Of a DNA stretch of 64,000 nucleotides, positions 952 through 62,855 are shown piece by piece. Every line of letters begins with the position of its first letter. Position 1 is the first letter of the stretch. The notes under the pieces are model-generated. The model saw nothing but the letters and a program-made list of their open reading frames with translations. It was not told the origin of the DNA and did not search any database. A program made the position numbers and the translations under genes. The stretch spans positions 70,315 through 134,314 of the forward strand of contig JBAZRV010000004.1 in the NCBI GenBank assembly GCA_041662745.1, in the 5' to 3' direction. The DNA is from Patescibacteria group bacterium. Its GTDB lineage: Bacteria; Patescibacteriota; Patescibacteriia; 2-01-FULL-39-33.

Positions 952-962
952 AAATATAAAAA

Positions 963-1598: not shown

Positions 1599-1691
1599 AA
1601 AATAACCGCTTATAAAGCCAAAAACCTGCCGGCCGGCAGGCAAGCCCGTAATGTCTTTAGACCTTACGGACCTTCAACTTCTAATTTAAAA

Positions 1692-9158: not shown

Positions 9159-12100
9159 TTAAGCGTCTATTTCTTCGTCATCCTTCATCATGCCGGATTC
9201 AATTTTATCATCAACATTCCTGATCGGCTTATTGTTTTCCAATAATTCCACATTAAGCGCCAAACCCTTAAGTTCGCGAATCAAAACATTAAACGATTCC
9301 GGAATATATAAATTGGTAATAGGCTCGCCCTTGATGATGTTCTCGTAGGTCTTGCTGCGGCCGACTACGTCATCTGACTTAATAGTCAAAATTTCCTGCA
9401 AAGTCGCGGCCGCGCCGTAAGCTTCCAAGGCCCAAACTTCCATTTCACCGAATCTTTGTCCGCCGAATTGCGCCTTGCCGCCCAAAGGCTGTTGGGTGAT
9501 AAGAGAATAAGGACCAATGGAACGGGCATGGATTTTATCTTCTACCAAATGATTCAACTTCAGCATATACACCATGCCGACGGTTGATTTCTTGGCAAAA
9601 GATTCACCGGTGCGGCCGTCATATAATTGGATGCGGCCGTCTTCCGGATAGCCGGCAGCCTTGAGTTGTTCGCGAATATTGTCTTCAGTCGCGCCGTTGA
9701 AAACGTTAGTCGCCACTTTGTAGTTCAAAGCCTTGGCGGCCAAGCCCAAATGAGTTTCTAAAATCTGTCCCAAATTCATGCGGGAAACGACGCCCAAAGG
9801 AGACAAAATAATATCAACCGGCGTTCCATCGGCCAAATGCGGCATATCTTCTACGGGCACTACTTTGGAAATAACGCCCTTATTGCCGTGACGGCCGGCC
9901 ATCTTATCGCCGACTTGCACCTTGCGCAAAGAAGCGACGGTCACCTGGACCATCTTAATCATGCCGGCTGACATCTTATCGCCGTTTTCGCGGGAGAAAA
10001 TCTTAATGTCAATCACTTTGCCGGAAGAGCCGTGTTCCAAATATAATGAAGAATCGCGGACGTCCCGGGCCTTTTCGCCGAAAATGGCGCGCAACAATTT
10101 TTCCTCGGCCGACAATTCAGTCTCGCCCTTAGGCGTAATCTTGCCGCACAGGATATCGCCGGATTTAACGGTGGCGCCGATACGCACAATTCCTTCCTCG
10201 TCCAAATCCTTCAATTTTTCTTCGCTGATGTTGGGAATATCGGAAGTAACGATTTCCGGGCCCAGCTTGGTTTCGCGAACTTCGCAAGTATAATTTTCAA
10301 TATGGATTGAAGAGTAGCGATCCTTCTGCACCAATTTCTCCGACAAAATAATCGCATCTTCATAGTTATAACCCTGCCACGGCATAAAAGCGACCAAAAC
10401 ATTCTGACCCAGGGACAGCTCTCCCTGATCAGTGCCGGGACCGTCAGCCAAAACATCGCCCTTCTTAACCTCCTGATCAATGGCGACAATCGGTTTCTGA
10501 TTAATGCAAGTGGAGGCGTTGGATCTGGTATATTTGGTCAAGCGGTAGGTATCAATCTTATTGTTTTTATTCAAAATTTCAATCTTGTCGCCATGCAGGC
10601 CGATGACTTTGCCGTCTTCTTTGGCTAAAGCCACGTGGCCGGAATCGCGGGCGGCGATGCGTTCTAATCCGGTGCCGACTAAAGGCGCTTGCGGCCTGAC
10701 CACGCAGACGGCTTGGCGTTGCATGTTCGTACCCATCAAAGCGCGGACGGCGTCATCATGTTCCAAAAAAGGAATGCAAGAAGTGGCGATGGAAACGATC
10801 TGGTTGGATGACACATCCATGTAATCAACCTGGTTAGTGGGAGCGACAGTCGGGTTCAGCTTGACGCGAGCTTCCACCTTATCCGATTTAAAGTATCCTT
10901 TTTCATCAAGTTCGGTATTGTACGGAGTAGTGGTGGAACGGGATTCTTCAAAAGCGTCAATATATCTTATTTCATTGGTCACGCGCGGTCTAACGCTGAT
11001 TTTATTCAATTCAATATTTTCCGCCAAAGCTTTAGCGGCGTCTTTTCCGATTTCCTCTCCGGCTTTGACTATGATTGAACCGTTTGCGTCTCGCAAATCA
11101 ACTTGAGCGATTTCGCCGACGGCGGTTTTTCCGTCATTAGCCAAAGTATGCGCCACCTTATAATAAGGGGCTTCAATAAAACCGTATTCGTTAATGCGGC
11201 AATAACCGGCCAAATGACCGACCAAACCGATATTGGGACCTTCCGGGGTGGCGATAGGACAGATTCTGCCATAGTGAGTCGGATGCACGTCGCGCACTTC
11301 AAAACCGGCGCGTTCACGGGACAAGCCGCCCGGACCGAGCGCGGAAATTCTGCGTTTGTGCTCCAGCTCGGCCAAGGGATTAACCTGGTCCATGAATTGC
11401 GACAGCTGCGAAGACATGAAAAACTCCTTGACCACCGACATTAGCGGTCGAGCATTGGTTAATTTAGACGGACTAAGAGTAGTGACATCCAAAGTGGACA
11501 TGCGATCTTTGATGATCCTTTCCATTCTGGCCAGACCGATGCGGAATTTGGCTTGAACCAATTCGCCCACGGCTTTGACGCGACGATTGCCCAAATGATC
11601 AATATCGTCAGCTCGTTCTTGGGTCAAGGTCAGACGCATGATTTCTTTCAGGATATTAATGATGTCCTCTCTTAAGAGAACTCTGCTTTCCTTGTTGATT
11701 TCACGGTCGCTCTCAAAGCGCTGATTCATTTTGTAACGGCCGACCGAACCGAAATCATAACGCGAAAAATTGAAAAACATGTTATCAATCAACTGCTTGG
11801 CGTTATCGGGCGCGGCCAAATCTCCGGGGCGGATACGCTTATAAACTTCAATCAAGCCCTCGGCTTCATTTTCCGAAGCGTCTTTTTTAATGGTCGCTTC
11901 AATAAATTCGCTGGCGCCGTCAAAATCGGTAAACTGACCAAGTATCTCTTCATTGCTGGAAAAACCGAAAGCGCGCAACAAAGCGGTTACGGCTACTTTT
12001 CTTTTGCGGTCAATTTTAACCCAGAGAACTTTGTTCAAGTCAGTCTCAAATTCCAGCCAAGAACCGCGGTTGGGAATAACCTTGGCGCCATATAATTTGC

Positions 12101-12563
12101 GATCAACGGCCGGGGTGGAGGTAAAGAAAACGCCGGCCGACCGGACCAGTTGAGAAACGACAACGCGTTCAATGCCATTGACGATGAACGTGCCGCGATC
12201 AGTCATTAAAGGATAGTCGCCCAAATAAATCTCCTGTTCCATGCTTTGGCCGGTCTTTTTGTTGACTAATTTAACATTAACGCGCAACGGCGCTTCGTAG
12301 GTAATGTTTTTTTCCTTGGAGGCCACCTCGTCAAACTTGGGTTCATCCATGTAATAATTCATGAAATAAACTTCCAGGTCACGGCCGATAAAATCAGTGA
12401 TGGGAGAGAATTCATCCAAAAGCTCGCGTAAGCCAACCTTCCAGAACCAGTCATAGGACCATTTCTGCAATTCAATCAAATCAGGCGCCTGAAACAAGTT
12501 TTTTGTCAGAGGCGCAAAATTAACCCGACCGTTAATCACGTTCAAATTATTTTTATTAGACAT
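9159..12563 (-). CDS. rpoB: DNA-directed RNA polymerase subunit beta
   Basis: The 1134-aa protein has conserved beta-subunit motifs (GEMEVWALEAYGAA, RFGEMEVW and others). It lies immediately upstream of rpoC on the same strand. Confidence 0.97.
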   Translation of the reverse strand: MSNKNNLNVINGRVNFAPLTKNLFQAPDLIELQKWSYDWFWKVGLRELLDEFSPITDFIGRDLEVYFMNYYMDEPKFDEVASKEKNITYEAPLRVNVKLVNKKTGQSMEQEIYLGDYPLMTDRGTFIVNGIERVVVSQLVRSAGVFFTSTPAVDRKLYGAKVIPNRGSWLEFETDLNKVLWVKIDRKRKVAVTALLRAFGFSSNEEILGQFTDFDGASEFIEATIKKDASENEAEGLIEVYKRIRPGDLAAPDNAKQLIDNMFFNFSRYDFGSVGRYKMNQRFESDREINKESRVLLREDIINILKEIMRLTLTQERADDIDHLGNRRVKAVGELVQAKFRIGLARMERIIKDRMSTLDVTTLSPSKLTNARPLMSVVKEFFMSSQLSQFMDQVNPLAELEHKRRISALGPGGLSRERAGFEVRDVHPTHYGRICPIATPEGPNIGLVGHLAGYCRINEYGFIEAPYYKVAHTLANDGKTAVGEIAQVDLRDANGSIIVKAGEEIGKDAAKALAENIELNKISVRPRVTNEIRYIDAFEESRSTTTPYNTELDEKGYFKSDKVEARVKLNPTVAPTNQVDYMDVSSNQIVSIATSCIPFLEHDDAVRALMGTNMQRQAVCVVRPQAPLVGTGLERIAARDSGHVALAKEDGKVIGLHGDKIEILNKNNKIDTYRLTKYTRSNASTCINQKPIVAIDQEVKKGDVLADGPGTDQGELSLGQNVLVAFMPWQGYNYEDAIILSEKLVQKDRYSSIHIENYTCEVRETKLGPEIVTSDIPNISEEKLKDLDEEGIVRIGATVKSGDILCGKITPKGETELSAEEKLLRAIFGEKARDVRDSSLYLEHGSSGKVIDIKIFSRENGDKMSAGMIKMVQVTVASLRKVQVGDKMAGRHGNKGVISKVVPVEDMPHLADGTPVDIILSPLGVVSRMNLGQILETHLGLAAKALNYKVATNVFNGATEDNIREQLKAAGYPEDGRIQLYDGRTGESFAKKSTVGMVYMLKLNHLVEDKIHARSIGPYSLITQQPLGGKAQFGGQRFGEMEVWALEAYGAAATLQEILTIKSDDVVGRSKTYENIIKGEPITNLYIPESFNVLIRELKGLALNVELLENNKPIRNVDDKIESGMMKDDEEIDA

Positions 12564-12902
12564 AAAAAAGCCCTCATTTCCCTTATTTTAGCCAAATATT
12601 TGGCTATGAGCGTTAGAAATGAGTTCGATTATTTATTTATTGAGTTGTATTTTTAGAATAAGACACTAATTTTTACGGCTTATTAGTGTTCACGAGCACT
12701 CTAAATGACTTCTCCGCCCGTTAGCGGATAAAGATTCAATATAATTATATTAACAGAAACGATAAAAGAAGTCAATAGTTTTTTGACCACTTGAGCAAGA
12801 TTTTATTATTTGTCAAATAATAATTAATTATTACCTAAATTTAGCCAATAACACATCAAAAATAACCAAAAATTAAAAACTATTGATTAAAAATTATTTG
12901 AG

Positions 12903-12911
12903 TTATCCACA
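12903..12911 (+). promoter_or_regulatory. Perfect DnaA-box consensus TTATCCACA in the AT-rich divergent intergenic region
   Basis: An exact 9-mer. It sits in the 486-bp AT-rich spacer between the rpoB start and the radical SAM gene. Confidence 0.4.
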
Positions 12912-13049
12912 GGGTAATTACTAATCAACTCAATAGTCAAACCGCAATAGTTGATTTTTTTATCATTAACAACTATACTTATCAATACATTTTAGCAAAA
13001 AATGAGGCACCTTACAAAAAATTACATAAAAAAACCAAAGGAGTAAAAA

Positions 13050-27079: not shown

Positions 27080-28693
27080 TTGCCTTTTAATCTAACTTTT
27101 TCTATGCCCCAAACCACAGGCGAAGCCGAATGGCTTTTACAGGCGCTAAAAAAGAATTACAGTCGCTCCGCGCCCAAGGATTCATCCAAAATAAAACTCA
27201 ATCAGCTGATATCCAAATTGGGATTTTTTTACGAAAAAGTCAGAAACGCCATTGATTATAATGACGAACATTTGATCCGACGCAATTCCCTGCGCCGGCT
27301 GATCACCAGGCAAATGAAATTCCTGGCCGAGCGAGATCCGGTTAAGATCGCCGAAACCGTAATTTTTGAATTCATTCGCGCCAAATACCTGCCCAACGAT
27401 GCCCTGCCGGAAAGCGACATCGAGCAAACCGCGGCCGTTATCGCCAAATACCTGACGCTATTCAATCACCTGCAGAACCATCCGGTGGCGGAAACCAAAA
27501 AAATCAACGATTGGCTTTTGGATCTCCTGACTTGCGAAGTTGACGAATACCTTTTCCCCAACGGCCGGGATATGGCGATGGTTAATTTCATGTACGGCGA
27601 AATGATCAAAAGCATTTCTTTCGTCAAAAGCTCCCTGGACGAAAAAGAACGCAATCTGCAAATCTACATTGCCGTCCTGAAAAACTTAATCAAGGCCGAT
27701 CTGCCGCTGATCCGCTATTGGCTCGTCAAATTATACAATCCGCGCTGGAATTCCTTCACCCCCGACGATATTAAAAAATTCGCTCCCAATTTGGCCGCTG
27801 CCAGAAACAGCATTGAGTTGCATCTTAACCATTATTCCGGCTATCAGATAACGCAGATGATCAAGAAACAGGCCGTCTTCTTCCAAATTCTCAGAGAAAT
27901 CATTGAGCAGAGCGACGACGACATCCGAGAAACAATCAATGATGAGAATAAATTAGAAGAAAAAATCAGCGAGGTCTGCAACAAGAACTACAAACGCATC
28001 CGCGGCAAACTGATCGGTTCAATCGTCCGCGTCATCATTTATATCCTGTTCACCAAGACTATTCTGGCTGTCATTTTGGAACTGCCCTACGACCAATTCA
28101 TCGTCGGCCAGGTCAATTGGTATGCGCTCTTGATCAATATTGTTTTCCATCCCTGCCTGATGTTTGTCATCGCCATGTCCATCAAGGTGCCGGGACAAAA
28201 AAACACCCGGGTCATTATTGAGGAGATCAAAAAAATCATTTACGGCAGCGAACGCAAACTGGTTTATAAGCCGCGCAAACTGTTGCGTCGCGGCTCCTTC
28301 ACCTTTATTTTCTTCAACGCCATCTACTTAGTCATGTTCGGCATCTCCTTTGGCGCCGTAGTCGCGGTTTTGCATCGTTTGGACTTTAACCTGCTTTCCG
28401 GCGCGCTGTTCATCTTCTTCTTGACTCTTGTTTCCTTTTTCGGCTTCCGCCTGCGCAATTTTGCCAATCAATTCCTGGTCGTGCCCCGCAAAGAAAACCT
28501 GTGGAATTTCCTGTTAGACTTTTTCTCCTTGCCGATCATCCGCGCCGGCAAATTCTTTTCCACTAATTTTTCCAAAATCAACGTTTTTTTATACATCCTG
28601 GATTTCATCATTGAAACGCCGTTCAAAATGTTAGTGGAATTGCTGGAGAAAGCGCTGTCATTCATCGGTGAAAAACGAGAAGAAATATCTTAA
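27080..28693 (+). CDS. Hypothetical membrane protein (cytoplasmic N-terminal domain and C-terminal multi-TM region)
   Basis: The ORF is 537 aa with a hydrophobic C-terminal half. No motif was recognised. Confidence 0.45.
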   Translation: MPFNLTFSMPQTTGEAEWLLQALKKNYSRSAPKDSSKIKLNQLISKLGFFYEKVRNAIDYNDEHLIRRNSLRRLITRQMKFLAERDPVKIAETVIFEFIRAKYLPNDALPESDIEQTAAVIAKYLTLFNHLQNHPVAETKKINDWLLDLLTCEVDEYLFPNGRDMAMVNFMYGEMIKSISFVKSSLDEKERNLQIYIAVLKNLIKADLPLIRYWLVKLYNPRWNSFTPDDIKKFAPNLAAARNSIELHLNHYSGYQITQMIKKQAVFFQILREIIEQSDDDIRETINDENKLEEKISEVCNKNYKRIRGKLIGSIVRVIIYILFTKTILAVILELPYDQFIVGQVNWYALLINIVFHPCLMFVIAMSIKVPGQKNTRVIIEEIKKIIYGSERKLVYKPRKLLRRGSFTFIFFNAIYLVMFGISFGAVVAVLHRLDFNLLSGALFIFFLTLVSFFGFRLRNFANQFLVVPRKENLWNFLLDFFSLPIIRAGKFFSTNFSKINVFLYILDFIIETPFKMLVELLEKALSFIGEKREEIS

Positions 28694-30618: not shown

Positions 30619-31680
30619 CTACTTTCGGGTCGCCAACTGGGCCGCTTTGCGCGCCGCCGCCAACATCGGATTGTCTTCCAGACTGGATCCGAATTGGCGA
30701 TCGCGATGAGGCTTCTTGAAACCGGCTCGGCCCGCTTCGGTGAAGGACGCGTCAATAATCTGGCCGAGGCGGTAGATAAGGCCCCGGAGTCGGCGCTGAA
30801 GACGGCTTTTATTGATGGCATCCGGCGAATCATCGCTGATTTCGTCGGGGTCTTTGCCACCCAGCAGAGCCACAGCCGCCTGTCGTTTGAGGTTCTGGCC
30901 CTCGACGAAGATGGGCTCGCCGTCCGGCTTCTCCCAATAGTAGGGACCAACCAGAACTTGCCGTCCGGTCGGCTCACCGGTTTCGGGATTTACTTCCTCC
31001 TCCCGCCGGTAACCCACGCCACACTTCCACTGCTCGAGATTGATCCCGAGCCGGCCATCAGCGAAATGGATCACCGTGACCTTGACGAAGCGCTGACCGA
31101 AACCCGACTCCAGCACGGTCGTGTGGGAGAATTCCCCACACTCTTTGTCCATCAAATTTTTGTTGATGGACGGCGTAAGCGGCATAAACCGCTTACCCAA
31201 CGAACCGCGACTCATGCCACGGATCTTAGCGGTACCGATCAGGATCGGTTCCACCATTCCGGGCATATCCGCCGGCGCCACGATCTGCGTGGTGCTTCGT
31301 CCTCGACGAACCACAACCTCGCCATCGTTGATGCCATTGGCGATGGCGACTTTTCCGATGTCCAGAAACACCTTGTCCATCAAGGCGTTGCTGATCTCGA
31401 CGGCGATAGGGACGATCGTCGTCGCTTCCTGGTTGACGGTACCGTCGTCATTGACGGTACTGCAAACCACTGGCAGTCCGCCCGCCTGGAACATCTCCAG
31501 ACTGACATTGTCTTCACCATAGCCGGCTTCTTTCACCGTCAACGTCGCTTCCGACGTCTCCGGCGCTTCCGGCTCCTCGGCGACGGCAACGGCGCCACGT
31601 TCCTGCATGGCCGCCAACTCGGCCGCCATCGCTGCATCCGACGTACCATTGCCATTGCCACGACGACTCTTCTTGCTCAT
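30619..31680 (-). CDS. Hypothetical protein (353 aa) in a compositionally atypical segment of about 60% GC
   Basis: The start at MSKKSRRGNGN is preceded by the RBS AAGGAGA. The long antisense ORF 30598..31725 is an R-rich GC artefact. No family was recognised. Confidence 0.55.
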   Translation of the reverse strand: MSKKSRRGNGNGTSDAAMAAELAAMQERGAVAVAEEPEAPETSEATLTVKEAGYGEDNVSLEMFQAGGLPVVCSTVNDDGTVNQEATTIVPIAVEISNALMDKVFLDIGKVAIANGINDGEVVVRRGRSTTQIVAPADMPGMVEPILIGTAKIRGMSRGSLGKRFMPLTPSINKNLMDKECGEFSHTTVLESGFGQRFVKVTVIHFADGRLGINLEQWKCGVGYRREEEVNPETGEPTGRQVLVGPYYWEKPDGEPIFVEGQNLKRQAAVALLGGKDPDEISDDSPDAINKSRLQRRLRGLIYRLGQIIDASFTEAGRAGFKKPHRDRQFGSSLEDNPMLAAARKAAQLATRK

Positions 31681-31792
31681 GTTTGTCTCCTTGCCGCTAA
31701 TCGCGGCTTTTATGGGGATTGTTAGGTGCTTGCCACGCCCACCAGGACGTAACAAATAATTATAGCACACTGATATTTTTTTGTCAATAGAC

Positions 31793-31801
31793 TTATCCAC
31801 A
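31793..31801 (+). promoter_or_regulatory. Perfect DnaA box TTATCCACA upstream of the GC-rich orphan gene
   Basis: An exact 9-mer in the AT-rich tract at 31700-32180. Confidence 0.4.
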
Positions 31802-32183
31802 GTAAAAGCGAAATATTTATGTTTTATAAACAAAAATATCTAAATTTAAACAAAAAAATAAATAGCTAAATGCTATTTATTCCTGATTATTCAAGCTAAA
31901 TTATCGCTCTGCGGCCATTATCTGATGGAAACGGAAAACAATCCGGTTAAATACGATAAAATCGGGGTCAAAATGATAATGCCCAAATTCCACAAAGGTT
32001 TAATAAAATTTTCCCATACGCCGATAACGGCCAGGGTATACAAAACCACCATTACCCAAAAAATTGTCTTTAAATAAGTATCGTCCACAGAATTAGCTTA
32101 TGGCTTATAGAAAATGGCTTATAGTAAACCAATTTCAGATTCTACACCAAAAAACAGCAAATGTCAATGTCAAATGTCAATAT

Positions 32184-33233: not shown

Positions 33234-33449
33234 AATTTAAAAGGTTAAAAATCGTAAAAACAAGAATCTGTGAAATCATTAAGATTTAGTTGCTCGTGAA
33301 TTTAAATAAACTGCATTTATTGCCTAAACTATAGCAAAGTAACCTGAAAAAATCAAGGATTGCCCTCGGCAAAACTATTAAATTAAAAGGGGGCAGTAAT
33401 CGCTTACTGCCCCGCAAATAAAGTGCTTTTTTAATTCAGCTTGTTCAGT

Positions 33450-34178
33450 TCAGTTTGCCTTGGCCGCCTGAAATTCGGCCATCAGACCGGCGTCAATATC
33501 CTGAGCGTCCAGCTGAGCTAGCGCCGCATCCACGTTGAAGCCGGAGGAGGCATCCAAATCGCGGTCGATGTCGCCATCCGATCGGAATTCTGCTTGAGCC
33601 GCAACCAACTCACCCTGGAGTTCACCCAGGAATGCGGTATCAACCTTAGCGCCGCCCTGAGCCCGCGCCCGATCGCGCATCGCTACCGCTTGCTTATGAG
33701 CTTCAATCGCCTTGAGCATAGCGGGTCCGTTTTGGCGGATCGTGTTCAATCCGGATAGGGCTTCATTGTAATTGGCCCGAGCGAGCTTGTAACTCTCCTC
33801 GAGAGTACCATAGGTTACCTTCTGACTCGCGATCGCGTCGTCAAGGGATTTGACCTCCTGCGATACCTGGCCGAGTTGCGCTGTCTTGTCCGGTTGATCA
33901 ACCAGGCTGCCGCCCAAGCCGACGAGCTTGATCCGACGAACCTGCAGAGCTTCCAACGGCTCCAATTCTTTGGTTTCCGGATCGGCGATCGCGCGCATTT
34001 GGGCGCCGATCTGCCGCGCCAATATTCGCTTTTCCTGGACTTGCTTTTCCAGTTCCGCGATGATTTGCGTCAATTTTTCTTCCGGCGATAAGGCCGAGGC
34101 CAAAAGCCCCTGCAATCGACTGCCCATCGCCTTGAAAAACATGCCAATATTAACTTTCTTGTCCATCGCTTGCGACAT
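33450..34178 (-). CDS. pspA: PspA/IM30/Vipp1-family protein
   Basis: The protein is about 240 aa of coiled coil and aligns in register with PspA. The start was chosen at MSQAMDKK. Confidence 0.6.
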   Translation of the reverse strand: MSQAMDKKVNIGMFFKAMGSRLQGLLASALSPEEKLTQIIAELEKQVQEKRILARQIGAQMRAIADPETKELEPLEALQVRRIKLVGLGGSLVDQPDKTAQLGQVSQEVKSLDDAIASQKVTYGTLEESYKLARANYNEALSGLNTIRQNGPAMLKAIEAHKQAVAMRDRARAQGGAKVDTAFLGELQGELVAAQAEFRSDGDIDRDLDASSGFNVDAALAQLDAQDIDAGLMAEFQAAKAN

Positions 34179-34251
34179 TGATTTGTCTCCTCTTTTGTTG
34201 CGATTTCTGGTTTCTGATTTGAATAACGACTTACGGCTTACTAACAAAAAA

Positions 34252-34989
34252 TTAAAGCAAATCACTCACATCAACCGACGGTTCAAACTTTTCTCCCAGA
34301 AACAGTCCGCCGGAACCTCTGGCCTCGCCCTTTCTGGCGTCCAAATAAATCAGCTGCCTGTCACCGCCCCGTTCGCGCGAAGTGACAAAGTACAACCGAT
34401 CGTCGTTTTCAATGGCATCGCATTCTCCGTCCACCTGAGCATCAAACGTACCGATATCAATGATTTCCCAAGTAACACCGGAAGTTAAACTCGACGGCAA
34501 TTCGTATGGCACGGGTTCAGACTGGTCATTCTCCTTAAAGATCCGTGCCGGTCCCGGCTTACCCTCAACCCCTTTATAAAATTTCATCAAGGACATTGAT
34601 TCCAACTTCGTGGCCCTTAGCCAAATCGGTTTACCGCCTTCTTGGCTGGGTACCTTAAAAATCCAGATACCTCCCGCCAAAGCCAATGCCTTGGAAACTG
34701 CCTCGGTTTTAGACCAAGGCGAATCCGGTGTCTTCTTAAACATCTCCCACAAAGTAACTGAGGCTTTGACTGCCCGTTCCGACTCTCCCAATAGAGTAAT
34801 CGTTTGCTGGGCCAATGTCTGTTCCAACCGCTTATGCATAGGCGGTGGGGTATCAAGTGAAACCAGGTTACGAGGTTGTTTGGCCACTTTATTTCCAACA
34901 ACCAGCGCTTTTTTGTTTTTAATCAGACAACCAATACCTACGCCGGAAGCCAAGATAACAAAGAGCCCTAATAGTGACAAAAAATCCAT
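34252..34989 (-). CDS. Membrane-anchored hypothetical protein (one N-terminal TM helix and a globular domain)
   Basis: The N-terminus reads MDFLSLLGLFVILASGVGIGCLI. Confidence 0.45.
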   Translation of the reverse strand: MDFLSLLGLFVILASGVGIGCLIKNKKALVVGNKVAKQPRNLVSLDTPPPMHKRLEQTLAQQTITLLGESERAVKASVTLWEMFKKTPDSPWSKTEAVSKALALAGGIWIFKVPSQEGGKPIWLRATKLESMSLMKFYKGVEGKPGPARIFKENDQSEPVPYELPSSLTSGVTWEIIDIGTFDAQVDGECDAIENDDRLYFVTSRERGGDRQLIYLDARKGEARGSGGLFLGEKFEPSVDVSDLL

Positions 34990-35048
34990 GTCTTTTCTCC
35001 TTCTTCGTTTAGACTACCAATTGAATAAACAATGTTCATTCTTTTTGT

Positions 35049-36872
35049 TCACCAACCGCCACTGTCGCTGCTGGAACTGCTACTGCCCCAACCGCCACTG
35101 TCGCTGCTGGAACTGCTACTGCCCCAACCGCCACTGTCGCTGCTGGAACTGCTACCGCCCCAACCGCCACTGTCGCTGCTGGAACTGCTACTGCCCCAGT
35201 CGCTCCAACCGCTGCTGGAACTGCTACCGGAACTGTCGGAGTCAAAAGAAAACGATGATGTGCTCTGACTATCTTGGTAATCGTCGTAGGCTTTTTTAGC
35301 CTTCCGACCAGTGTCATCAGCTAACTGATATGCTTGATCGGCATTAAACACAGCCGATTCGTAACGCCTGTCGGAAGCGTCACGGCGAGCTTGGGCCAAA
35401 TGGCTTTTAGCGGAATCAAAATCCGACTGAGCCGACGAAGAATGGCTGCCATAACTTTCAACACTATCTTCGTTGTCATCAATCATTCGTTCAGCTCGGC
35501 GTTCTTGATTGGGCCAATCTAAACGATACGATTCTAAATCATCAACTCTCTTCGTGAACTGTAGCAAAAAACGATTGACCTGAGACAAATCACGATCGCC
35601 ATTGGTTATTTCCGAATCAGCCAATTTGTAATCTTGATCCTCGGTCGCAATTCTTTGGGCTTTAGCCAAGCGCTCCCTGACCCATGAAAGATCGTCGCTG
35701 GCCAATGTTACATTGTCAGCCACTGGCGACCAAACGGTTTTCGCATGAAGATCAAGTTTGGCGCGGAGCTGCCGCGCCTGATTAAGGCCGTTTTGAGCAG
35801 TCGCAATGTTAGAAGCCAAAATTGCAATATTATTCCTAACCTTCTCCGCCATTATTAGTTGCTGATCGGCCCCCCTAATCGCTTCGTTAGCCAACTCAGC
35901 CGCCTTAAGCGCGTTGCTGTAAACCAAGGGCAGATCATATTTGCCCCCTTCAATAATTGCTTGCGAAGCCTCGGTGGCAACGGCAAACAACTGTTCCGCT
36001 TGACGCAAATCGGCGTAAGGTTGCTTGAGCGCCTTAGCTGCCAATAGCGGGCCTTTGCCGACCAAATTGTCAAGATAACTGTTGGCCGACGAAATGCTGT
36101 TTTGAGCCGACACCAACCTGTCTTTCGCGTTGGCTTGCGCTTCTTGATAGAAGTCAAGATTGCTTGCCACTTTGGAAACAAAGGAGTCAATGGAGTCGAC
36201 GAGCAAAGAGGTGGCGGTTAGCAAGTCGCGCGCTTGATTGGGATCACCCAACTGGTCGGAACTCTCAACCGGCAACAAATCGGAAATCTTTTTCAAATTG
36301 CCGGAAGCCTTATCAAGACTGATTTTTGCTTCCGACAACTCTTCAAGATTTTGGGCTGCATACTTGGACAAGTACTGACTGCCCTCGCTGGACAACCTTT
36401 CCTTGGCCGAACCGTAAGCCCGATTCTTCTCCTCCCATCCCAGCTGAAGCTGGCTCAATTCCTGACGATCATCCTCGGTTACTTTTTCTATAGCCGCCAA
36501 TTGTTCATTGGCGTTTTCCAACGCTCTCTGCGAAGCCTTGATAAATTTTTCGGCTTCAATAGCCTGCGCCTTCTTTTGCTTGGACTTGCCGGCCGCATCC
36601 GCCTGCTTGATGTCTTCCTCAGCCTGACTGAGATTGATTCGCCCCAACTCAATTAAGTCGGAAATCGGGACTGAATATTCCGGTTTATACCAACTGGAAA
36701 CAGTGCCGAATTCAGATTGGAATTGCTCAATAGCCAATGATTGCTCAATCGCCTCCTGCCTAACTCCGGCCAAACACTTGTCGGCCAGACGCTTAGGCGC
36801 GGACATGACCAGCCATAGGCCGGACATCATAGCGATAATCAACAGAATAATCAGGACTTTTGACTTGTTCAT
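35049..36872 (-). CDS. Membrane-anchored long coiled-coil protein with a C-terminal Ser-rich tandem-repeat tail ending in GW
   Basis: The N-terminal TM helix is LIILLIIAMMSGLWLVM. About 500 aa of helical sequence follow. The tail is 4-5 copies of SSSSSSDSGGWG. Confidence 0.6.
   Translation of the reverse strand: MNKSKVLIILLIIAMMSGLWLVMSAPKRLADKCLAGVRQEAIEQSLAIEQFQSEFGTVSSWYKPEYSVPISDLIELGRINLSQAEEDIKQADAAGKSKQKKAQAIEAEKFIKASQRALENANEQLAAIEKVTEDDRQELSQLQLGWEEKNRAYGSAKERLSSEGSQYLSKYAAQNLEELSEAKISLDKASGNLKKISDLLPVESSDQLGDPNQARDLLTATSLLVDSIDSFVSKVASNLDFYQEAQANAKDRLVSAQNSISSANSYLDNLVGKGPLLAAKALKQPYADLRQAEQLFAVATEASQAIIEGGKYDLPLVYSNALKAAELANEAIRGADQQLIMAEKVRNNIAILASNIATAQNGLNQARQLRAKLDLHAKTVWSPVADNVTLASDDLSWVRERLAKAQRIATEDQDYKLADSEITNGDRDLSQVNRFLLQFTKRVDDLESYRLDWPNQERRAERMIDDNEDSVESYGSHSSSAQSDFDSAKSHLAQARRDASDRRYESAVFNADQAYQLADDTGRKAKKAYDDYQDSQSTSSFSFDSDSSGSSSSSGWSDWGSSSSSSDSGGWGGSSSSSDSGGWGSSSSSSDSGGWGSSSSSSDSGGW
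35055..35240. repeat. 36-bp tandem repeat (about 4.5 copies) encoding the SSSSSSDSGGWG tail
   Basis: The unit ACCGCCACTGTCGCTGCTGGAACTGCTACTGCCCCA is repeated head-to-tail. Confidence 0.85.
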
Positions 36873-37228
36873 GGTACTTGATTCTCCTTTTGTTGCCGGT
36901 TAATTAAGTTGCCTCAAATTGAGATACCCTGAAAGACATTATAAAAACTATTAAATTTTAAGGTTCCCAGCCTAAAGAAACCAAAATTATAGCCACTTTA
37001 GAATTTTGCATTCTATCATATCCTTAATAATTTGTCAAATAAAAATACAACAAAAAGATGCGAGGGATTGAATAATTCAACCGCCTGGGGCATTTTAAGT
37101 CGAGACCAATCCGGCCGAAAACAGAAACAGATTTATGGTATTGTCATGAAGAGAGGGTAATCCGCGCTTTTTTGATTGAAAATATAACTGCTTTTTGTTA
37201 AACTAAAGAAGTTAACCCAACACGGTTT

Positions 37229-38949: not shown

Positions 38950-39849
38950 ATGGCTATTTTCTGGATTATCCTTGCTATTTTTGTTCTGATCGTCTTGGTT
39001 TTTGCTTCCGCTTTCACCGTCCAGCAACAAACCGTGGCCGTCATTCAAAGATTCGGCAAATTCAAAAAAATGTCCCATTCCGGACTCAATCTGCGCCTTC
39101 CCCTGATTGACCACATTGCCGGTCATATCAGTTTGCGCATCAACCAATTGGACGTTAAAATTGAAACCAAAACCGAAGACAATGTCTTTGTCCATGTTAC
39201 CGTTTCCGTGCAGTACCAGGTTTTGCCGGAAAAATTGTATGACGCTTTTTATAAATTAATCAACCCTAAAGAGCAGATTTCCTCTTACGTCTTTGATATT
39301 GTCCGCGCTCAAGTTCCGAAACTGAAACTGGACAATGTTTTTGAAAACAAAGATGAGATTGCCAATGCCGTTAACACCGAATTATCGCAAGCCATGTCTG
39401 ACTTCGGCTACCAAATCATCAAATCGTTGGTTACTGATATTGAACCTGACGCCCAAGTCAAAGCGGCCATGAATGAAATCAATTCCGCTCAGCGCCTGCG
39501 CGTCGCCGCCCAGGAAAAAGGCGAGGCGGAAAAAGTTTTGATGGTAAAAAAGGCGGAAGCCGAATCAGAAAGCAAAAAATTGCAAGGCGAGGGCATCGCC
39601 AATCAGCGTCGCGCCATTATCAACGGCCTCAAGGAATCGGTTGACGATTTCCAAAAATCAATCAAAGGATCAACCGCCCATGATGTCATGAATCTGGTAA
39701 TGGTCACTCAATATTTTGACACCCTGAAAGACATCGGCGCCTCTTCCAAGGCCAATGCCGTTTTCATCCCGCACTCTCCGGGAGCGGTTGCCGACTTAAC
39801 GGCGCAAATCCGCGACGCCCTGTTGCAGGCCGACGGAGCCAAACAATAA
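38950..39849 (+). CDS. SPFH/Band 7 (stomatin/prohibitin-like) domain protein
   Basis: The protein has an N-terminal TM helix and an SPFH core (AVIQRFGKF...NLRLPLIDH...). Confidence 0.8.
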   Translation: MAIFWIILAIFVLIVLVFASAFTVQQQTVAVIQRFGKFKKMSHSGLNLRLPLIDHIAGHISLRINQLDVKIETKTEDNVFVHVTVSVQYQVLPEKLYDAFYKLINPKEQISSYVFDIVRAQVPKLKLDNVFENKDEIANAVNTELSQAMSDFGYQIIKSLVTDIEPDAQVKAAMNEINSAQRLRVAAQEKGEAEKVLMVKKAEAESESKKLQGEGIANQRRAIINGLKESVDDFQKSIKGSTAHDVMNLVMVTQYFDTLKDIGASSKANAVFIPHSPGAVADLTAQIRDALLQADGAKQ

Positions 39850-47483: not shown

Positions 47484-48368
47484 ATGCCTGATTTGGAAGT
47501 TGCAGCAGGATCAATTATTGGCCGGGATCATTTAGGTTCCGGCAATGTATTGCTGGGCAGGAATAATCAAGATGCTTATCATGTCTGCGCTGATCAACAA
47601 AGGGCAGTAGCGGTGATTTGCGATGGTTGCGGTTCCCAAAAACATTCGGAAGTGGGGGCCAATGAAGCCGCTCGATTTATTAGCGAGAGGATTTATCAAT
47701 TATTGGCAACCCGTCAAGCTGTCAACACGTCGATCTCTTTACCTCTGACTCTGGGAGAACTGCGCCAAGAAATGTTGGCGGATATAAACCAACGAGTCAA
47801 ACGCTTATCGCCTAACGGTGGCAAGACCAAAACGGTTAATGATTTTTATTTGTTTACGGTTATCGGCGCGGTGGTTGACGATGACGGCTGCAGCATCTTT
47901 GCTTTAGGTGATGGTTGCTATGCCATCAATGGCGAATTCCATCAACTGGGACCGTTTAACGATAATGAACCGCCTTATTTGGCTTATGGTCTGACTGGCA
48001 CAAAAAGCAAACCGCCAAACTCGCGAGATTGGATGTTTAGGGTGGAATCATACTGCCCATTGGATTTTTTCCAACATCTTTTAATCGGCAGTGATGGCGT
48101 AGTCAAATTGGAGGCCAGCGCCGAGAAAAAAGTTCCCGGCTTAAAACAACCGGTCGGACCGCTATCGCAATTCTGGGAAAACGACAAATACTTTGGTAAT
48201 CCGGATGAAATCCGACGCTATTTAGCTCTGATCAATCGGCAATATGTTACACTGGGGTTGCCGGCCCGCGAGATTATTCGTGAACCGGGACTACTGCCCG
48301 ATGACACGACTCTGGTGGTCATCCGCAAAAAACCGATCAAGGAGCAGAAATATGAATGTGACAATTGA
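47484..48368 (+). CDS. PP2C-family Ser/Thr protein phosphatase
   Basis: The sequence GRDHLGSGNVLLGRNNQDAYHV...AVICDGCGSQKHSEVGA has the metal-binding Asp pattern. The start was chosen at MPDLEV after the RBS GGAAAGGAAG. Confidence 0.7.
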   Translation: MPDLEVAAGSIIGRDHLGSGNVLLGRNNQDAYHVCADQQRAVAVICDGCGSQKHSEVGANEAARFISERIYQLLATRQAVNTSISLPLTLGELRQEMLADINQRVKRLSPNGGKTKTVNDFYLFTVIGAVVDDDGCSIFALGDGCYAINGEFHQLGPFNDNEPPYLAYGLTGTKSKPPNSRDWMFRVESYCPLDFFQHLLIGSDGVVKLEASAEKKVPGLKQPVGPLSQFWENDKYFGNPDEIRRYLALINRQYVTLGLPAREIIREPGLLPDDTTLVVIRKKPIKEQKYECDN

Positions 48369-50220
48369 CGGCAAGAGATTTCGTTTGAATCCTCAAAATG
48401 CAATTGGCAAGGGCGGCGAAGCTGATGTTTACAGCATCGGCGGCGGCGAGGCCCTGAAAATTTTCAAGGGTCCGGATCATCCGGATTTAAGCGGCTTTCC
48501 AGAATTGCAAAGACAAGCAAGGGATCGGATTGCCACCCATCAAGCCAAACTGCCCAACTTTCCTTCGGGACTGCCCGCGGCAGTGGTAAAACCACTCTCA
48601 TTGGCTACTGATGCCAAGGATCAAATCATCGGCTATAAAATGCCGCTGATTTCCGGGGCTGAAGTTTTATTCAGATACGCGGACACTGATTGGCGGCAAA
48701 CCGGCGGCATTAAAGACAATGATGTCTTGAGCATATTTGCCGATCTGCATCCGACGGTCGACGGTATTCACCGAGTTGCGATAATTTCCGATTTCAACGA
48801 CCTCAACGTGCTGATTCAAGGGAAGAAGGCTTTTATTATTGATGCCGACAGTATGAGTTTCGGCCGTTGGCTGTCGCCGATGTTCACCGCTCGTTTTGTG
48901 GACCCGCTTTTGTGCGATCCGCAGAAAACTTCACCGCAACTTATTAAACCACACAACGAAAACAGCGATTGGTATGCTTTCTGTATTATGTTGATGCAGG
49001 TACTGCTTTTTGCCGGACCGTATGACGGCGTCTACCGCCCCAAAGATTCGGCCAAGCGCCTGCCGCATGATCAAAGGCCGCTTAAGCGTATTACCGTTTT
49101 CAATCCGGAAGTCCGCTATCCCAAGAACGCCCGGCCATACAATACCTTGCCGGACGAATTGCTCCATCATTTTTCTATGGTATTTGAGAAAGACCAGCGC
49201 GGATCCTTCCCGCTTCGGTTAATCACCGACGCTCGTTTTACTACTTGCACTGCTTGCGGTTATACGCATATGCGTAATATCTGCCCTCATTGCCAACACA
49301 CAGCCCCAGCCGCAGTCATTACCAAAATGACGGTCAAAGGCCAGGTTACGGCCACGCAGATTTTCCGCACTTCCGGCACAATCGTTTGTTCATCTGTGTT
49401 TAATAAAAGACTGTTTTATCTTTATCATGAAGCCGGAAAGTTTCGGCGGGAAGACGGTTCAAAAATCATTGAAGCTCCCTTGGATGCACAAACGCGCTAT
49501 CGCCTCTCGCCGGAACTGACTTTGTTCGGCAAGGGCGGGATAATCAGAACGTTTAAAAACGGCTTAGAACAGGAAATTCTGGGCGTAGATTGCTTCAATG
49601 GCACCTTACCGGTTTTTGATGTAACGGAAAACGGCCGCTATTGGACTTACGGTGGAGAACTCTGGCGTGACGGCCAATACGCTCCGGAATTGATCGGCCA
49701 AACACTAAAAAATCAAACTTTGATTTGGGCCGGAAAAAAATTCGGTTTTGGCTTTTATCGAGCGGCGCAAGGCCTAGTGCATTTTACCTTTGACGCCAAA
49801 CAGCCCGCCATTAATGATAGTATCAGCCTGCCTAAACTGCCCGGACAACTACTGGATACGACTTGCGTTTTCGGCGATGACTTCTGTTGGTTTTTTACGG
49901 CCGTGCAAATGGCCGGAAAAATAATAAACACCGCATCACTGATAAATTCAAACGGCGACGTATTGGCGCATCAAGAGGAGGAAGCTAATGTCAGCAGTTG
50001 GTTAAGCTCTATTCGCGGTAAATTTCCTATCGGTCCGGTATTACTAGCGGCTACCGATGAAGGCATCGTACAAGTTAAGGAAAGCGGCGGCCGCATCCAA
50101 GCCACTAAAACCTTCCCGGACACAGAACCGTTTGTTAATAGTAAGATCAAGCTTTTCGGTTTGGCCGACGGCCTGTATGCCATCGGTAGAAACACTATCA
50201 CTAAATTGGTAATCAAATAG
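48352..50220 (+). CDS. Protein kinase-like protein with a central zinc ribbon and a C-terminal beta-rich domain
   Basis: The G-loop is IGKGGEADVY and the Lys motif is ALKIFK. The catalytic-loop-like sequence is HRVAIISDFNDLN and the DFG-like sequence is IIDADS. The zinc ribbon is CTACGYTHMRNICPHC. The RBS AAGGAG precedes the start, which overlaps the phosphatase gene. Confidence 0.65.
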   Translation: MNVTIDGKRFRLNPQNAIGKGGEADVYSIGGGEALKIFKGPDHPDLSGFPELQRQARDRIATHQAKLPNFPSGLPAAVVKPLSLATDAKDQIIGYKMPLISGAEVLFRYADTDWRQTGGIKDNDVLSIFADLHPTVDGIHRVAIISDFNDLNVLIQGKKAFIIDADSMSFGRWLSPMFTARFVDPLLCDPQKTSPQLIKPHNENSDWYAFCIMLMQVLLFAGPYDGVYRPKDSAKRLPHDQRPLKRITVFNPEVRYPKNARPYNTLPDELLHHFSMVFEKDQRGSFPLRLITDARFTTCTACGYTHMRNICPHCQHTAPAAVITKMTVKGQVTATQIFRTSGTIVCSSVFNKRLFYLYHEAGKFRREDGSKIIEAPLDAQTRYRLSPELTLFGKGGIIRTFKNGLEQEILGVDCFNGTLPVFDVTENGRYWTYGGELWRDGQYAPELIGQTLKNQTLIWAGKKFGFGFYRAAQGLVHFTFDAKQPAINDSISLPKLPGQLLDTTCVFGDDFCWFFTAVQMAGKIINTASLINSNGDVLAHQEEEANVSSWLSSIRGKFPIGPVLLAATDEGIVQVKESGGRIQATKTFPDTEPFVNSKIKLFGLADGLYAIGRNTITKLVIK

Positions 50221-62854: not shown

Positions 62855-62855
62855 T

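Follow-up and report, generated by a model that had tools for sequence, protein, structure and literature searches.

A conserved three-gene operon of Patescibacteria encoding a candidate divergent PspA/IM30-like protein and two membrane-anchored proteins

The PspA/Vipp1/ESCRT-III proteins are considered an ancient superfamily of membrane-repair proteins, nearly universal in distribution. In E. coli, PspA responds to phage secretin stress, and elsewhere DUF4178 and DUF4247 proteins are partners in PspA-DUF350 operons. A different kind of membrane-anchored protein is EzrA, a division regulator of Firmicutes that combines an N-terminal transmembrane (TM) anchor with spectrin-like repeats of about 90–100 residues, for a total of about 600 residues. 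Among systems with known partners, the pspA-ydjGHI operon of B. subtilis encodes PspA together with two membrane anchors, YdjG and YdjH, and an SPFH protein, YdjI; recruitment of PspA to the membrane depends on YdjG and YdjH, the latter of which interacts with PspA (PMC8581546). From the cloning primers given in the same paper, we deduced by translation that YdjH ends in ...GAGAVF and YdjG in ...MGGGF. In YgcG, a TPM protein of E. coli, the TM region is succeeded by a basic stretch and then by the C-terminal end ...SDSGGF...ASGRW. In searchable surveys and full-text literature searches, Patescibacteria (CPR) received no mention in the context of PspA, Vipp1, or ESCRT-III.

Here, we describe an operon on a 64,000-nt stretch of DNA from a member of the Patescibacteria (hereafter the window), with the following features, listed in the order of transcription:

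37010–37038, minus strand: promoter-like site TTGACA-17-TAGAAT with extended TG, about 138 nt upstream of gene A; a consensus match only
35049–36872, minus strand: gene A, 607-aa bitopic membrane protein, first in the operon; open reading frame with GGAG ribosome-binding site
34252–34989, minus strand: gene B, encoding a 245-aa protein with a membrane anchor and a predicted cytoplasmic, beta-rich domain of no recognised fold; open reading frame
33450–34178, minus strand: gene C, encoding a soluble helical protein of 242 aa that is a candidate divergent PspA/IM30-like member of the ESCRT-III superfamily, last in the operon
33390–33413, minus strand: intrinsic-terminator-like hairpin with a 10-bp stem (six GC pairs), then a T-rich tail

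The three open reading frames are genuine genes, organised as a single operon. Transcription of A, B, and C as a unit is indicated by the promoter-like site (top-scoring in the region, with 11 of 12 consensus positions matched), by three ribosome-binding sites, by short intergenic gaps of 59 and 73 nt, and by the terminator-like hairpin 37 nt past the stop codon of gene C, which itself starts at an ATG downstream of a GAGGAG ribosome-binding site, giving 242 aa. A preliminary description of this DNA had reported three co-directional minus-strand genes, and open reading frames occur at exactly the limits it claimed; it had also listed the PspA-like gene as the first, and here it erred, since transcription runs A, B, C and places gene C last.

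Protein C is probably a divergent PspA/IM30-like protein, as judged from profile–profile comparison and predicted fold. Its homologs form 26 clusters, with 52 representatives among 1.84 billion proteins. Comparison of a 65-sequence C superfamily with ten PspA/Vipp1 sequences in hhalign gave Prob 80% and P 1.4e-5 over 187 colinear columns (query 29–246, template 13–204), a span that covers nearly the whole protein. A 20-sequence C alignment gave Prob 53% (P 1.3e-4), and the narrow 26-sequence C family alone gave just Prob 3.8%. In control comparisons, forward against reversed profiles yielded P 0.03–0.04 and reversed against reversed P 3.3e-5; we regard the profile–profile signal as moderate, not conclusive. 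The AlphaFold2 model of C, of moderate confidence (pLDDT 72.6, with the N-terminal 17 residues below 50), consists of a hairpin of helix 32–92 (32–64 and 74–92) and helix 96–174, then helix 182–203 and short C-terminal helices. When this model was searched against the PDB with Foldseek, the top eight matches were all Vipp1 (209–237 columns, E 0.027–0.17, prob 0.89–1.0), at E-values that are weak, none being ≤ 0.001; other matches were to SH3BP5, starting level with the eighth Vipp1 match at E 0.17, and to YscO at E 0.6–0.7. Comparison with the E. coli PspA hairpin (4WHE) gave a TM-score of 0.77 and an rmsd of 3.9 Å over 141 columns. Long helical hairpins match many unrelated proteins in fold searches.

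Inspection by eye placed two blocks of C in register with PspA—one from P32 to R51, aligned with PspA P25 to R44 and described by P-x3-[LV]-x-[QL]-x-[IV]-x-[ED]-[ML]-x3-[LV]-x3-R, and the other from V216 to A238, aligned gaplessly with PspA L193 to A215, the conserved FAxL...LAxLKA block. Near the N-terminus, where PspA has an amphipathic helix alpha0 and then an (E)DP-x-K motif, residues 11–27 (IGMFFKAMGSRLQGLLA) carry hydrophobic residues at i, i+3, i+4, i+7, i+11, i+14, and i+15, in a stretch where AlphaFold2 confidence is low and whose hydrophobic moment is not the highest of the N-terminal region; SPEEKL comes next, aligned in register with EDPQKL of PspA. Within the C family, conservation is strongest in a block at residues 60–77 (QMRAIADPETKELEPLEA) that lacks a counterpart in PspA. 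Neither PspA_IM30 nor Snf7 was among the families listed by Pfam hmmscan of C (E ≤ 1) or of 26 family members and 20 wider relatives (E ≤ 10), no Pfam or NCBIfam model matched C, a PDB profile search with C returned no PspA or Vipp1, and against an HMM built from ten PspA/Vipp1 sequences, C-family members scored no better than their own reversed sequences. The preliminary description had called this protein PspA-like and had offered to give up its proposal if a PspA_IM30 hit were lacking. At the HMM level the hit is indeed lacking, and the identification is upheld solely by the more sensitive methods of profile–profile comparison and predicted fold.

Protein B is attached to the membrane at its N-terminus:

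34918–34983, minus strand: B residues 3–24, N-terminal TM helix (helix in the AlphaFold2 model), predicted N-out and C-in

Across 30 homologs, the mean number of Lys and Arg residues was 0.03 in the N-terminal flank versus 3.17 in the C-terminal flank, so that by the positive-inside rule the domain of B is clearly predicted to be cytoplasmic. The AlphaFold2 model is confident (mean pLDDT 90.3, pTM 0.77); Foldseek found at best prob 0.38 in the PDB and 0.44 in BFVD, with every TM-score below 0.4. Homologs form 34 clusters, all unnamed and free of Pfam domains, and a Pfam scan gave no match in 32 of 32 members. Against DUF4178 and DUF4247 proteins of Paenibacillus, hhalign of the B profile gave P 0.53 and 0.17, respectively, in what is a weak test given the single-sequence templates. 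The predicted beta-rich domain is apparently without a described relative.

Protein A consists of an anchor, a long, presumably helix-rich arm, and a low-complexity tail:

36798–36857, minus strand: A residues 6–25, sole hydrophobic TM helix or signal anchor (Kyte–Doolittle 19-mer mean 2.63)
35253–36785, minus strand: A residues ~30–540, helix-rich region (helicity predicted) with an internal repeat of ~90 aa (hhalign self-comparison)
35052–35252, minus strand: A residues 541–607, low-complexity tail (37 Ser, 15 Gly, 7 Asp, 6 Trp, 2 Phe)
35052–35228, minus strand: 36-bp tandem repeat encoding the 12-aa tail units (TRF: 35052–35227, 4.9 copies, 93% matches, score 296)

A Kyte–Doolittle scan detected no further hydrophobic segments in A, and the single TM helix earlier ascribed to each of A and B corresponds to one N-terminal hydrophobic helix in each protein. 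The orientation of A is ambiguous—mean Lys plus Arg counts across 10 homologs were 2.3 on the N-terminal side versus 3.3 on the C-terminal side, slightly favouring C-in in seven of the 10 and tying in three—and, with so weak a difference, the arm and tail could be outside the cell. The arm, about 500 aa in length and described earlier as coiled coil, which it may be, is rich in Ala, Leu, Ser, Asp, Gln, and Glu and poor in Pro (Ala 13.9%, Ser 10.8%, Leu 10.4%, Pro 1.8%). Self-comparison matched segment 389–428 to 479–517 (hhalign P 2.7e-6), and additional segment pairs offset by ~90 aa reached P ~1e-3. Besides the window's own protein, five homologs were found (38–78% identity), plus orthologs in all eight loci described below. 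None of Pfam, NCBIfam, PADLOC, PHROGs, and the PDB sequences yielded a match to A; the earlier remark that no TPM domain is recognisable holds, with no Pfam or NCBIfam match in A or in six homologs at E ≤ 10.

The tail comprises five 12-aa units of the SSSSSDSGGW type and ends in ...SSSSSSDSGGW-COOH, confirming the Ser/Gly/Trp tail of the preliminary description with the addition of Asp. The 36-bp repeat that it had called perfect is present in about five copies and is near-perfect: units 2, 4, and 5 are identical, unit 3 is off by 1 nt, and unit 1 (GSSSSSGWSDWG) is degenerate. The repeat is a possible slipped-strand variable locus, as the preliminary description proposed, and unit numbers do differ between orthologs (see below). 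Because the unit is 36 nt long and in frame, a change in repeat number cannot switch gene A on or off by frameshift. An independent assembly contains an identical repeat array, and two assemblies from short reads are interrupted within it. Tails of the same kind were found in all 14 of 14 A homologs, with units of the form [GS]SS[SG]SD[GS]GG[WYF], and all end at or within one residue of an aromatic. At the DNA level, orthologs have two to three repeat units of 30–39 nt and 73–90% identity, compared with 4.9 units here, and units are homogenised within each lineage; no other open reading frame in the ~190 kb sampled encodes the motif. The comparison with TPM/YgcG tails drawn earlier is apt, in that ...SSSDSGGW of A resembles the ...SDSGGF...ASGRW of YgcG, as short low-complexity motifs whose likeness does not imply homology. 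Tails of this kind also close YdjH and YdjG, which, like TPM/YgcG, are otherwise unrelated to A.

The three-gene synteny, whose absence from homolog neighbourhoods had been named as a possible refutation, is present in eight of eight orthologous loci examined (six of six genome loci plus L017 and L018), where the order A-B-C is kept and flanking genes differ. To date, most occurrences of the cassette are in Patescibacteria of the Parcubacteria type (Candidatus Buchananbacteria, for example), and the C-family members with a source name, together with the loci examined, come nearly all from Patescibacteria metagenome-assembled genomes. In the window, the operon is surrounded by core genes (ychF, ftsH, and rpoBC, for example), with no integrase or transposase nearby. 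The known PspA partners—PspB/C, LiaI/F, Toastrack, TPM, and an adjacent conserved SPFH gene—are absent at the locus. An SPFH gene lies 2 kb from the operon on the opposite strand, in this genome only, and tRNA genes are located at 38.5–38.9 kb, with no sign of integration beside them.

The preliminary description had also placed the operon in a segment of about 60% GC and had proposed horizontal acquisition from this composition. The measured value is 50.3% for the three-gene region versus 46.6% for the window, at the 94th percentile of 3.4-kb windows (maximum 51.8%). Only gene C is GC-high (56.2%, z = 2.1), and most of its excess falls in codon positions 1 and 2, thus reflecting amino-acid composition. 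Codon use and GC3, which had been suggested as checks for atypicality, are ordinary in all three genes (GC3 z-scores of −0.1, −0.7, and +1.3 for A, B, and C). Across the eight orthologous loci, operon GC consistently exceeds that of the flanks by 3–12 points and roughly follows the host, at 42–57% where flanks are at 33–50%. With GC3 ordinary, the overall GC at 50.3%, no integrase, and core genes as neighbours, horizontal acquisition is unsupported.

Taken together, these observations make it reasonably probable, in our judgement, that the operon encodes a self-contained, three-gene membrane-maintenance module of the PspA/IM30 type. Protein C, soluble and entirely helical with a PspA/Vipp1/ESCRT-III fold, would be its effector and may bind the cytoplasmic face of the membrane, polymerise there, and stabilise or remodel it. 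The bitopic proteins A and B would make contacts with C and recruit or regulate it at the membrane, B by displaying its compact beta-rich domain to the cytoplasm and A by displaying, presumably also in the cytoplasm, a long arm of ~90-aa helical repeats. This arm would end in a flexible acidic Ser/Gly tail with two to five ...SD(G/S)GG-aromatic copies, which, by analogy with the tails of YdjH and YgcG, might act as a multivalent docking element. A more specific version, to which we give rather little credence, is that the operon is a minimal, lineage-specific ESCRT-III-type remodelling machine in which the polymer is recruited via the Ser/Gly tail with its Gly-Gly-aromatic end and the B domain is the receptor for this motif.

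The membrane-maintenance role that we infer has to be weighed against other accounts, among which we would assign a minor but real share of the probability to C being a generic helical-hairpin scaffold with no PspA ancestry, in a CPR-specific envelope or division scaffold composed of an EzrA-like A and the adaptors B and C. The failure of every sequence-to-profile method to give a PspA_IM30 match for C is what such a scaffold would predict, as are the weak Foldseek E-values, with other hairpin proteins scoring almost equally, and the build of A, whose N-terminal TM helix and about five ~90-aa helical repeats in ~600 aa resemble EzrA. Against this reading, the profile match between C and PspA is colinear over its 187 columns and is lost when one partner is reversed, PspA signature blocks are in register at both the N- and C-terminal ends of C, and Vipp1 holds all eight top fold ranks. 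Further, a search of six A homologs with the Pfam EzrA model (E ≤ 10) gave no match, the A-B-C loci showed no link to FtsZ or division genes, and no division gene was a conserved neighbour among them.

We think it distinctly unlikely that A is a surface protein whose helical stalk is extracellular and whose Ser-rich tail of Trp repeats is possibly glycosylated or wall-binding, in an operon that serves surface architecture or host attachment in an episymbiotic CPR cell and has C as a cytoplasmic accessory. The lone N-terminal hydrophobic segment of A could be a signal anchor, its positive-inside signal is weak, and the number of tail units varies between lineages, Ser-rich repeats of variable copy number being typical of surface proteins; but B is clearly predicted to have its domain in the cytoplasm, a signal sequence is missing from C, the slight charge bias of A leans C-in (seven of 10 homologs, three ties), Pfam finds no cell-wall-binding or sorting motif in A, and the closest analogue of its tail, that of YgcG, follows a TM region and a basic stretch and so points to the cytoplasm. 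A horizontally acquired mobile anti-phage or phage-derived module is highly improbable: while flanks do vary between genomes, operon GC stands above them in all eight loci, and PspA of E. coli responds to phage secretin stress, neither PADLOC nor PHROGs gave a significant match, integrases, transposases, and signs of integration at the tRNA genes are missing among the core-gene neighbours, and the GC excess is borne by codon positions 1 and 2, with GC3 ordinary in the window and operon GC roughly tracking the host.

If C is truly homologous to PspA, an entire branch of the family, in ultra-small bacteria with minimal genomes and unusual envelopes, escapes the standard domain models. This branch would bring with it two wholly unannotated partner families, A and B, the latter with a confidently predicted domain that has no detectable structural relative. 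As a small self-contained cassette, the operon would be a convenient system for studying the membrane tethering of PspA-type polymers, and it could reveal the function of the widespread Gly/Ser-rich, aromatic-ended tails on PspA-associated membrane proteins—which, if the more specific version given little credence above is true, would be a general, hitherto unrecognised docking signal for PspA-type polymers or their adaptors.

Compared with described systems, protein A is an architectural analogue of EzrA, alike in its N-terminal TM helix and ~500 aa of tandem helical repeats in a ~600-aa protein, whereas EzrA lacks the Ser/Gly/Asp/Trp tail. From the PspA/IM30 family (Vipp1, LiaH; PF04012; the bacterial branch of the ESCRT-III superfamily), C differs in the strongly conserved, family-specific ADPETKELEPLE block that breaks helix alpha1, in escaping the Pfam model and every HMM-to-sequence search, in the position of its gene at the end of the operon, and in the absence of the known partner genes. 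In common with that family, C has a similar length (242 versus 222–267 aa), the same predicted order of helices (a long alpha1/alpha2-3 hairpin, then short C-terminal helices), an [SD]P-E-x-K-L...R block past the putative N-terminal helix, in register with PspA, and an end block of the type ...[FL]A-x-L...[LM]A-x-[LF]-x-A. Relative to pspA-ydjGHI, the gene order of A-B-C is reversed and the SPFH gene is missing from the operon; A lacks a TPM domain, zinc ribbons and a YpeB/NTF2-like domain are both missing from B, and neither protein shows detectable sequence similarity to the B. subtilis partners. The organisation is nonetheless alike, in that a PspA-type protein (here a probable one) is encoded with two membrane-anchored proteins, one of which has a TM helix together with a long coiled coil or a Gly/Ser-rich, aromatic-ended tail; like the TPM-type partners YdjH and YgcG, A joins a membrane anchor to a Gly/Ser-rich low-complexity tail with an aromatic end.

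Three co-directional minus-strand ORFs were recovered at precisely the positions given in the preliminary description, and they are transcribed in the order A, B, C:

37038-37010, minus strand: sigma-70-like site, TTGACA-17-TAGAAT with an extended TG, 11/12 matches, the best in the region
36872..35049, minus strand: gene A, ORF of 607 aa
34989..34252, minus strand: gene B, ORF of 245 aa
34178..33450, minus strand: gene C, ORF of 242 aa, its ATG preceded by GAGGAG
33413-33390, minus strand: hairpin with a 10-bp stem and a T-rich tail, just 3' of C

A longer ORF for C, of 271 aa and starting at GTG, is regarded as an over-extension because the homologs all begin MSQAMDKK. Given the short intergenic gaps (59 nt between A and B, 73 nt between B and C), the Shine-Dalgarno sequence before each gene, the promoter-like site, and the hairpin, A, B, and C look like a single transcription unit. 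The proteins are identical to NCBI MAG entries WC668_03640, 03645, and 03650 of a ‘Patescibacteria group bacterium’, and the window represents core chromosome of a Patescibacteria (CPR) genome, in which the operon has ychF, ftsH, RNase J, ftsK, rpoB, and rpoC as neighbours. An SPFH/Band_7 gene (38950-39849, plus strand; E 2.5e-31) lies 2 kb upstream on the opposite strand, with a glycosyltransferase gene and two tRNA genes between it and the operon; in Bacillus, PspA has SPFH proteins as partners. As a conserved associate of the operon this gene was rejected, being missing at all six genome loci examined.

The identity of C was approached from both sequence and predicted fold. It had been described as PspA-like, a reading to be checked by a PspA_IM30 match; Pfam scans gave none for C, and neither PspA_IM30 nor Snf7 was among the families listed for 26 members of its family and 20 wider relatives, even at E ≤ 10. 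Against Pfam and NCBIfam, C returned only weak coiled-coil noise (GAS, Rad50), a PDB profile search returned a mitoribosomal protein alone, and a PspA HMM built here scored C no higher than reversed C. The Pfam model as it stands does not reach C. Its AlphaFold2 model (mean pLDDT 72.6) has a long hairpin, in which H32-64/H74-92 packs against H96-174, and then shorter helices. Vipp1 chains take the first eight places among the Foldseek matches of this model to PDB entries (209-237 columns, prob 0.89-1.0, E 0.03-0.17), and the E. coli PspA hairpin 4WHE fits the model with a TM of 0.77 and an rmsd of 3.9 Å.

Profile-profile comparison was made against a reference alignment of ten PspA/Vipp1 sequences—E. 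coli PspA, Synechocystis Vipp1, and eight annotated PspA/IM30 proteins from plasmids, from six phyla. The narrow C family gave a short N-terminal match only (hhalign Prob 3.8%), adding distant relatives of C raised this to Prob 53% (P 1.3e-4, 169 columns), and the alignment of 65 superfamily sequences reached Prob 80% and P 1.4e-5 over 187 colinear columns, nearly the entire protein. The match was lost when one partner was reversed (P 0.03-0.04) and regained when both were (P 3.3e-5), and therefore does not merely reflect shared composition or heptad periodicity; a single-sequence PspA template was uninformative. By direct inspection, P32...R51 of C is in register with P25...R44 of PspA, and V216...A238 is in gap-free register with L193...A215 (L220 facing F197, and F236 facing L213). 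Unlike PspA, C carries the block QMRAIADPETKELEPLEA (residues 60-77, several positions invariant), the best conserved of its family, which has no PspA counterpart and interrupts helix alpha1 in the model. Fold and profile comparison thus uphold the similarity to PspA that had been claimed, without the Pfam match, and on these two grounds C probably belongs, as a highly divergent member, to the PspA/IM30 branch of the ESCRT-III superfamily.

Homologs of the three proteins fall into 26 (C, 45-100% identity), 34 (B), and 6 (A) clusters, all unnamed and none with a precomputed Pfam domain. Searched exhaustively with the C-profile HMM, 1.84 billion representatives yielded only 52 proteins at E ≤ 1e-3. 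The A-B-C order is kept at six of six loci from a GTDB genome scan (L001-L006) and at two further loci, L017 and L018, so that the synteny proposed as a check on the operon is present at all eight. Ortholog lengths are about 590-610 (A), 231-251 (B), and 240-249 aa (C), and identity declines from C (57-67%) through B (51-59%) to A (25-39%); at the six genome loci, none of the window's flanking genes recur. Of the two C homologs that diverge most, one is found at L017. Its cassette (1-3267) lies on a 53% GC contig and adjoins DUF6638 and DUF2333 genes and two small membrane proteins, a setting which hints that the cassette may also occur beyond typical low-GC Parcubacteria. The genome records of L004, L005, and L006 carry the label ‘uncultured Gammaproteobacteria’ or ‘Saccharibacteria’, in what looks like MAG mislabelling. 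C also has a distant sister family, P0102-P0118 (20-25% identity), whose proteins of about 245-259 aa share the DP-containing helix 1 block and have a conserved Trp close to the C-terminus. Compared on its own with PspA, this family gave an hhalign P of 0.004; the divergence of its alignment precluded a pattern scan, and a single-protein metagenome scan found only a 46-residue gene remnant (L016, 7001-7138).

Protein A comprises a single hydrophobic helix (residues 6-25), an Ala-, Ser-, Leu-, Asp-, Gln-, and Glu-rich middle part of about 510 residues (Pro 1.8%), and a 67-residue tail. Segment-wise profile comparison revealed an internal repeat with a period of ~90 residues (389-428 against 479-517, P 2.7e-6; several further pairs at ~90-residue offsets, P about 1e-3), which suggests that the middle part is better described as tandem helical repeats than as one continuous coiled coil. 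No search made matched A to a known family. Pfam found neither LemA nor TPM in six homologs, bearing out the earlier statement that A has no recognisable TPM domain, and a run of PspA-like hairpins was rejected (hhalign P 0.08 against C and 0.2 against the PspA profile).

The tail of A is encoded by a 36-bp tandem repeat (TRF: 4.9 copies, 35052-35227, 93% matches). It had been called perfect; the repeat is real and near-perfect, with units 2, 4, and 5 identical in DNA, unit 3 one base off, and unit 1 degenerate. On the coding strand, units 1-5 encode GSSSSSGWSDWG, SSSSSSDSGGWG, GSSSSSDSGGWG, SSSSSSDSGGWG, and SSSSSSDSGGW-stop in turn. The same type of tail occurs in all 14 A homologs (for example, with the unit GGSSSSDGGGW), finishing at an aromatic or at most one residue from one (W, Y, F, WN, WE), and the 12-aa unit is therefore considered ancestral and presumably functional. 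DNA tandem repeats of 30-39 nt (2-3 copies, 73-90% identity) occur in the tails at seven of the eight orthologous loci, which represent six distinct tail sequences, L004 and L018 sharing one; L017 keeps the motif without a DNA repeat of that period. Copy number drifts and units are homogenised within lineages, the window array being the largest among the loci compared. No other ORF in ~190 kb of the window and related loci has such a tail. A comparison of copy number across strains yielded only one identical second assembly (ENA assembly L021, 100% identity over all 3,423 nt, array included) and contigs broken within the repeat: two short-read assemblies, L022 and L023, start 30 nt before the A stop codon and thus break inside it. 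As independent assemblies of the same organism, they illustrate how such arrays fragment metagenome assemblies and mask copy number. The slipped-strand variable locus that had been suggested would be a possible reading of the array.

Protein B is anchored by a TM helix (3-24) whose flanks differ in mean K+R over 30 homologs (N 0.03, C 3.17), and its short N-terminus is therefore predicted outside and its domain cytoplasmic. In a high-confidence AlphaFold2 model (pLDDT 90.3, pTM 0.77), the domain (residues about 60-245) is beta-rich, with about twelve strands; Foldseek found nothing convincing (best prob 0.38 and TM < 0.3 in the PDB, 0.44 and TM < 0.4 in BFVD), and there was no match in Pfam (32 members), NCBIfam, a PDB profile search, PADLOC, or PHROGs. 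The best conserved motif of the family, LDARKGEA-x-GSGGLF, lies near the C-terminus. A relationship to PepSY was rejected (E 0.15, in only 2/32 members), as was one to DUF4178/DUF4247, proteins of a Paenibacillus plasmid operon to which hhalign found no similarity. That operon (L026, 560-3071; NZ_CP013206.1) is a canonical PspA-DUF350-DUF4178-DUF4247 arrangement, and its DUF4247 protein, with a lipoprotein-signal-like N-terminus and a long Ser/Gly/Arg-rich tail at its end, is a further example of a low-complexity tail on a PspA-operon protein.

Base composition did not bear out the GC island of about 60%, nor the horizontal acquisition read from it. The region measures 50.3% GC against 46.6% for the window, placing it at the 94th percentile of 3.4-kb windows, the highest of which has 51.8%. 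Relative to 32 other genes of the window, A (z = 0.6) and B (z = 0.1) are ordinary and C is high (56.2% GC, z = 2.1), its excess coming mainly from the first two codon positions; in GC3, none of the three stands out (z = -0.1, -0.7, and +1.3 for A, B, and C). Operon GC is 3-12 points above the flanks at all eight orthologous loci (45.1% against 33.2% at L004) and roughly follows host GC. Because GC3 is normal here and operon GC tracks the host, we put the excess down to Ala/Gly/Arg/Asp-rich proteins and not to recent transfer; there are no mobility genes near the operon. The GC-richest gene measured nearby is a 404-aa ORF adjoining ychF (30619-31833, minus strand; 56.6% GC, GC3 66.7%), which has no Pfam or NCBIfam match and is also called in L021. 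Low-GC patches lie at 12001-13000 (36.8%) and 61001-63000 (35-37%), against the mean of 46.6%. Elsewhere in the window, a 957-aa ORF (56703-59576, minus strand) gives a clear Pfam match to MVP_shoulder, the shoulder domain of the major vault protein (residues 618-731; E 6.5e-23); a vault-like domain related to SPFH is unexpected in a CPR bacterium. The remainder of this ORF is without a Pfam match at E ≤ 1e-5, as are two large ORFs at 27080-28693 (plus strand, 537 aa) and 48244-50220 (plus strand, 658 aa).

In the mechanism that we propose, C would bind the inner leaflet via its N-terminal helix and polymerise, as PspA and Vipp1 do. B would tether or regulate C through its cytoplasmic beta domain, and A would do so as an extended arm whose multivalent, aromatic-ended tail may dock onto C or B. 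The proposal can be weighed against three other readings. In one, the system would be a helical scaffold without homology to PspA, or a division module of EzrA type. SH3BP5, the best unrelated hairpin protein matched by C, first appears at E 0.17, level with the eighth Vipp1; Pfam gave no EzrA match in six A homologs. We consider this reading unlikely, the reversal controls arguing for a specific PspA match. Less likely still is that A belongs to the cell surface, its Ser-rich tail lying outside the cell. The flanks of its TM helix carry 2.3 (N) and 3.3 (C) K+R; in E. coli YgcG, where the tail comes after the TM region, a basic stretch directly follows the membrane segment, which argues for a cytoplasmic tail, and by analogy the arm and tail of A would be cytoplasmic too. 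A mobile defence cassette is highly improbable, a defence-system or phage origin having been rejected when PADLOC and PHROGs gave no significant match.

Under the preferred reading, a membrane-associated PspA-like system, two partner families without any annotation come with the PspA-like protein, which is relevant to ESCRT-III/PspA evolution and to CPR cell biology; in the literature searched, we found no papers linking PspA or ESCRT-III to CPR bacteria. Among the membrane proteins of Bacillus-type operons, the conserved PspA partner is YdjH (Ravi et al. 2024, PMC11237479). According to Scholz et al. (2021, PMC8581546), YdjH interacts with PspA and probably serves as the anchor, and recruitment of PspA and of YdjI, an SPFH protein, to the membrane depends on the membrane proteins YdjG and YdjH. 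Primers from the latter study, translated here, imply the C-termini ...GAGAVF (YdjH) and ...MGGGF (YdjG). No known PspA partner genes occur at the CPR operon, which, unlike the Bacillus type, is without a TPM, zinc ribbon, or YpeB-like domain or an SPFH gene, and which has its PspA-like gene last rather than first. The two share one logic, that of a PspA-type protein with two bitopic membrane proteins; in the CPR partner A, a long arm of helices leads to a Gly/Ser tail with an aromatic at its end, and this tail is, as had been suggested, similar to the one of YgcG, a TPM-domain protein of E. coli.
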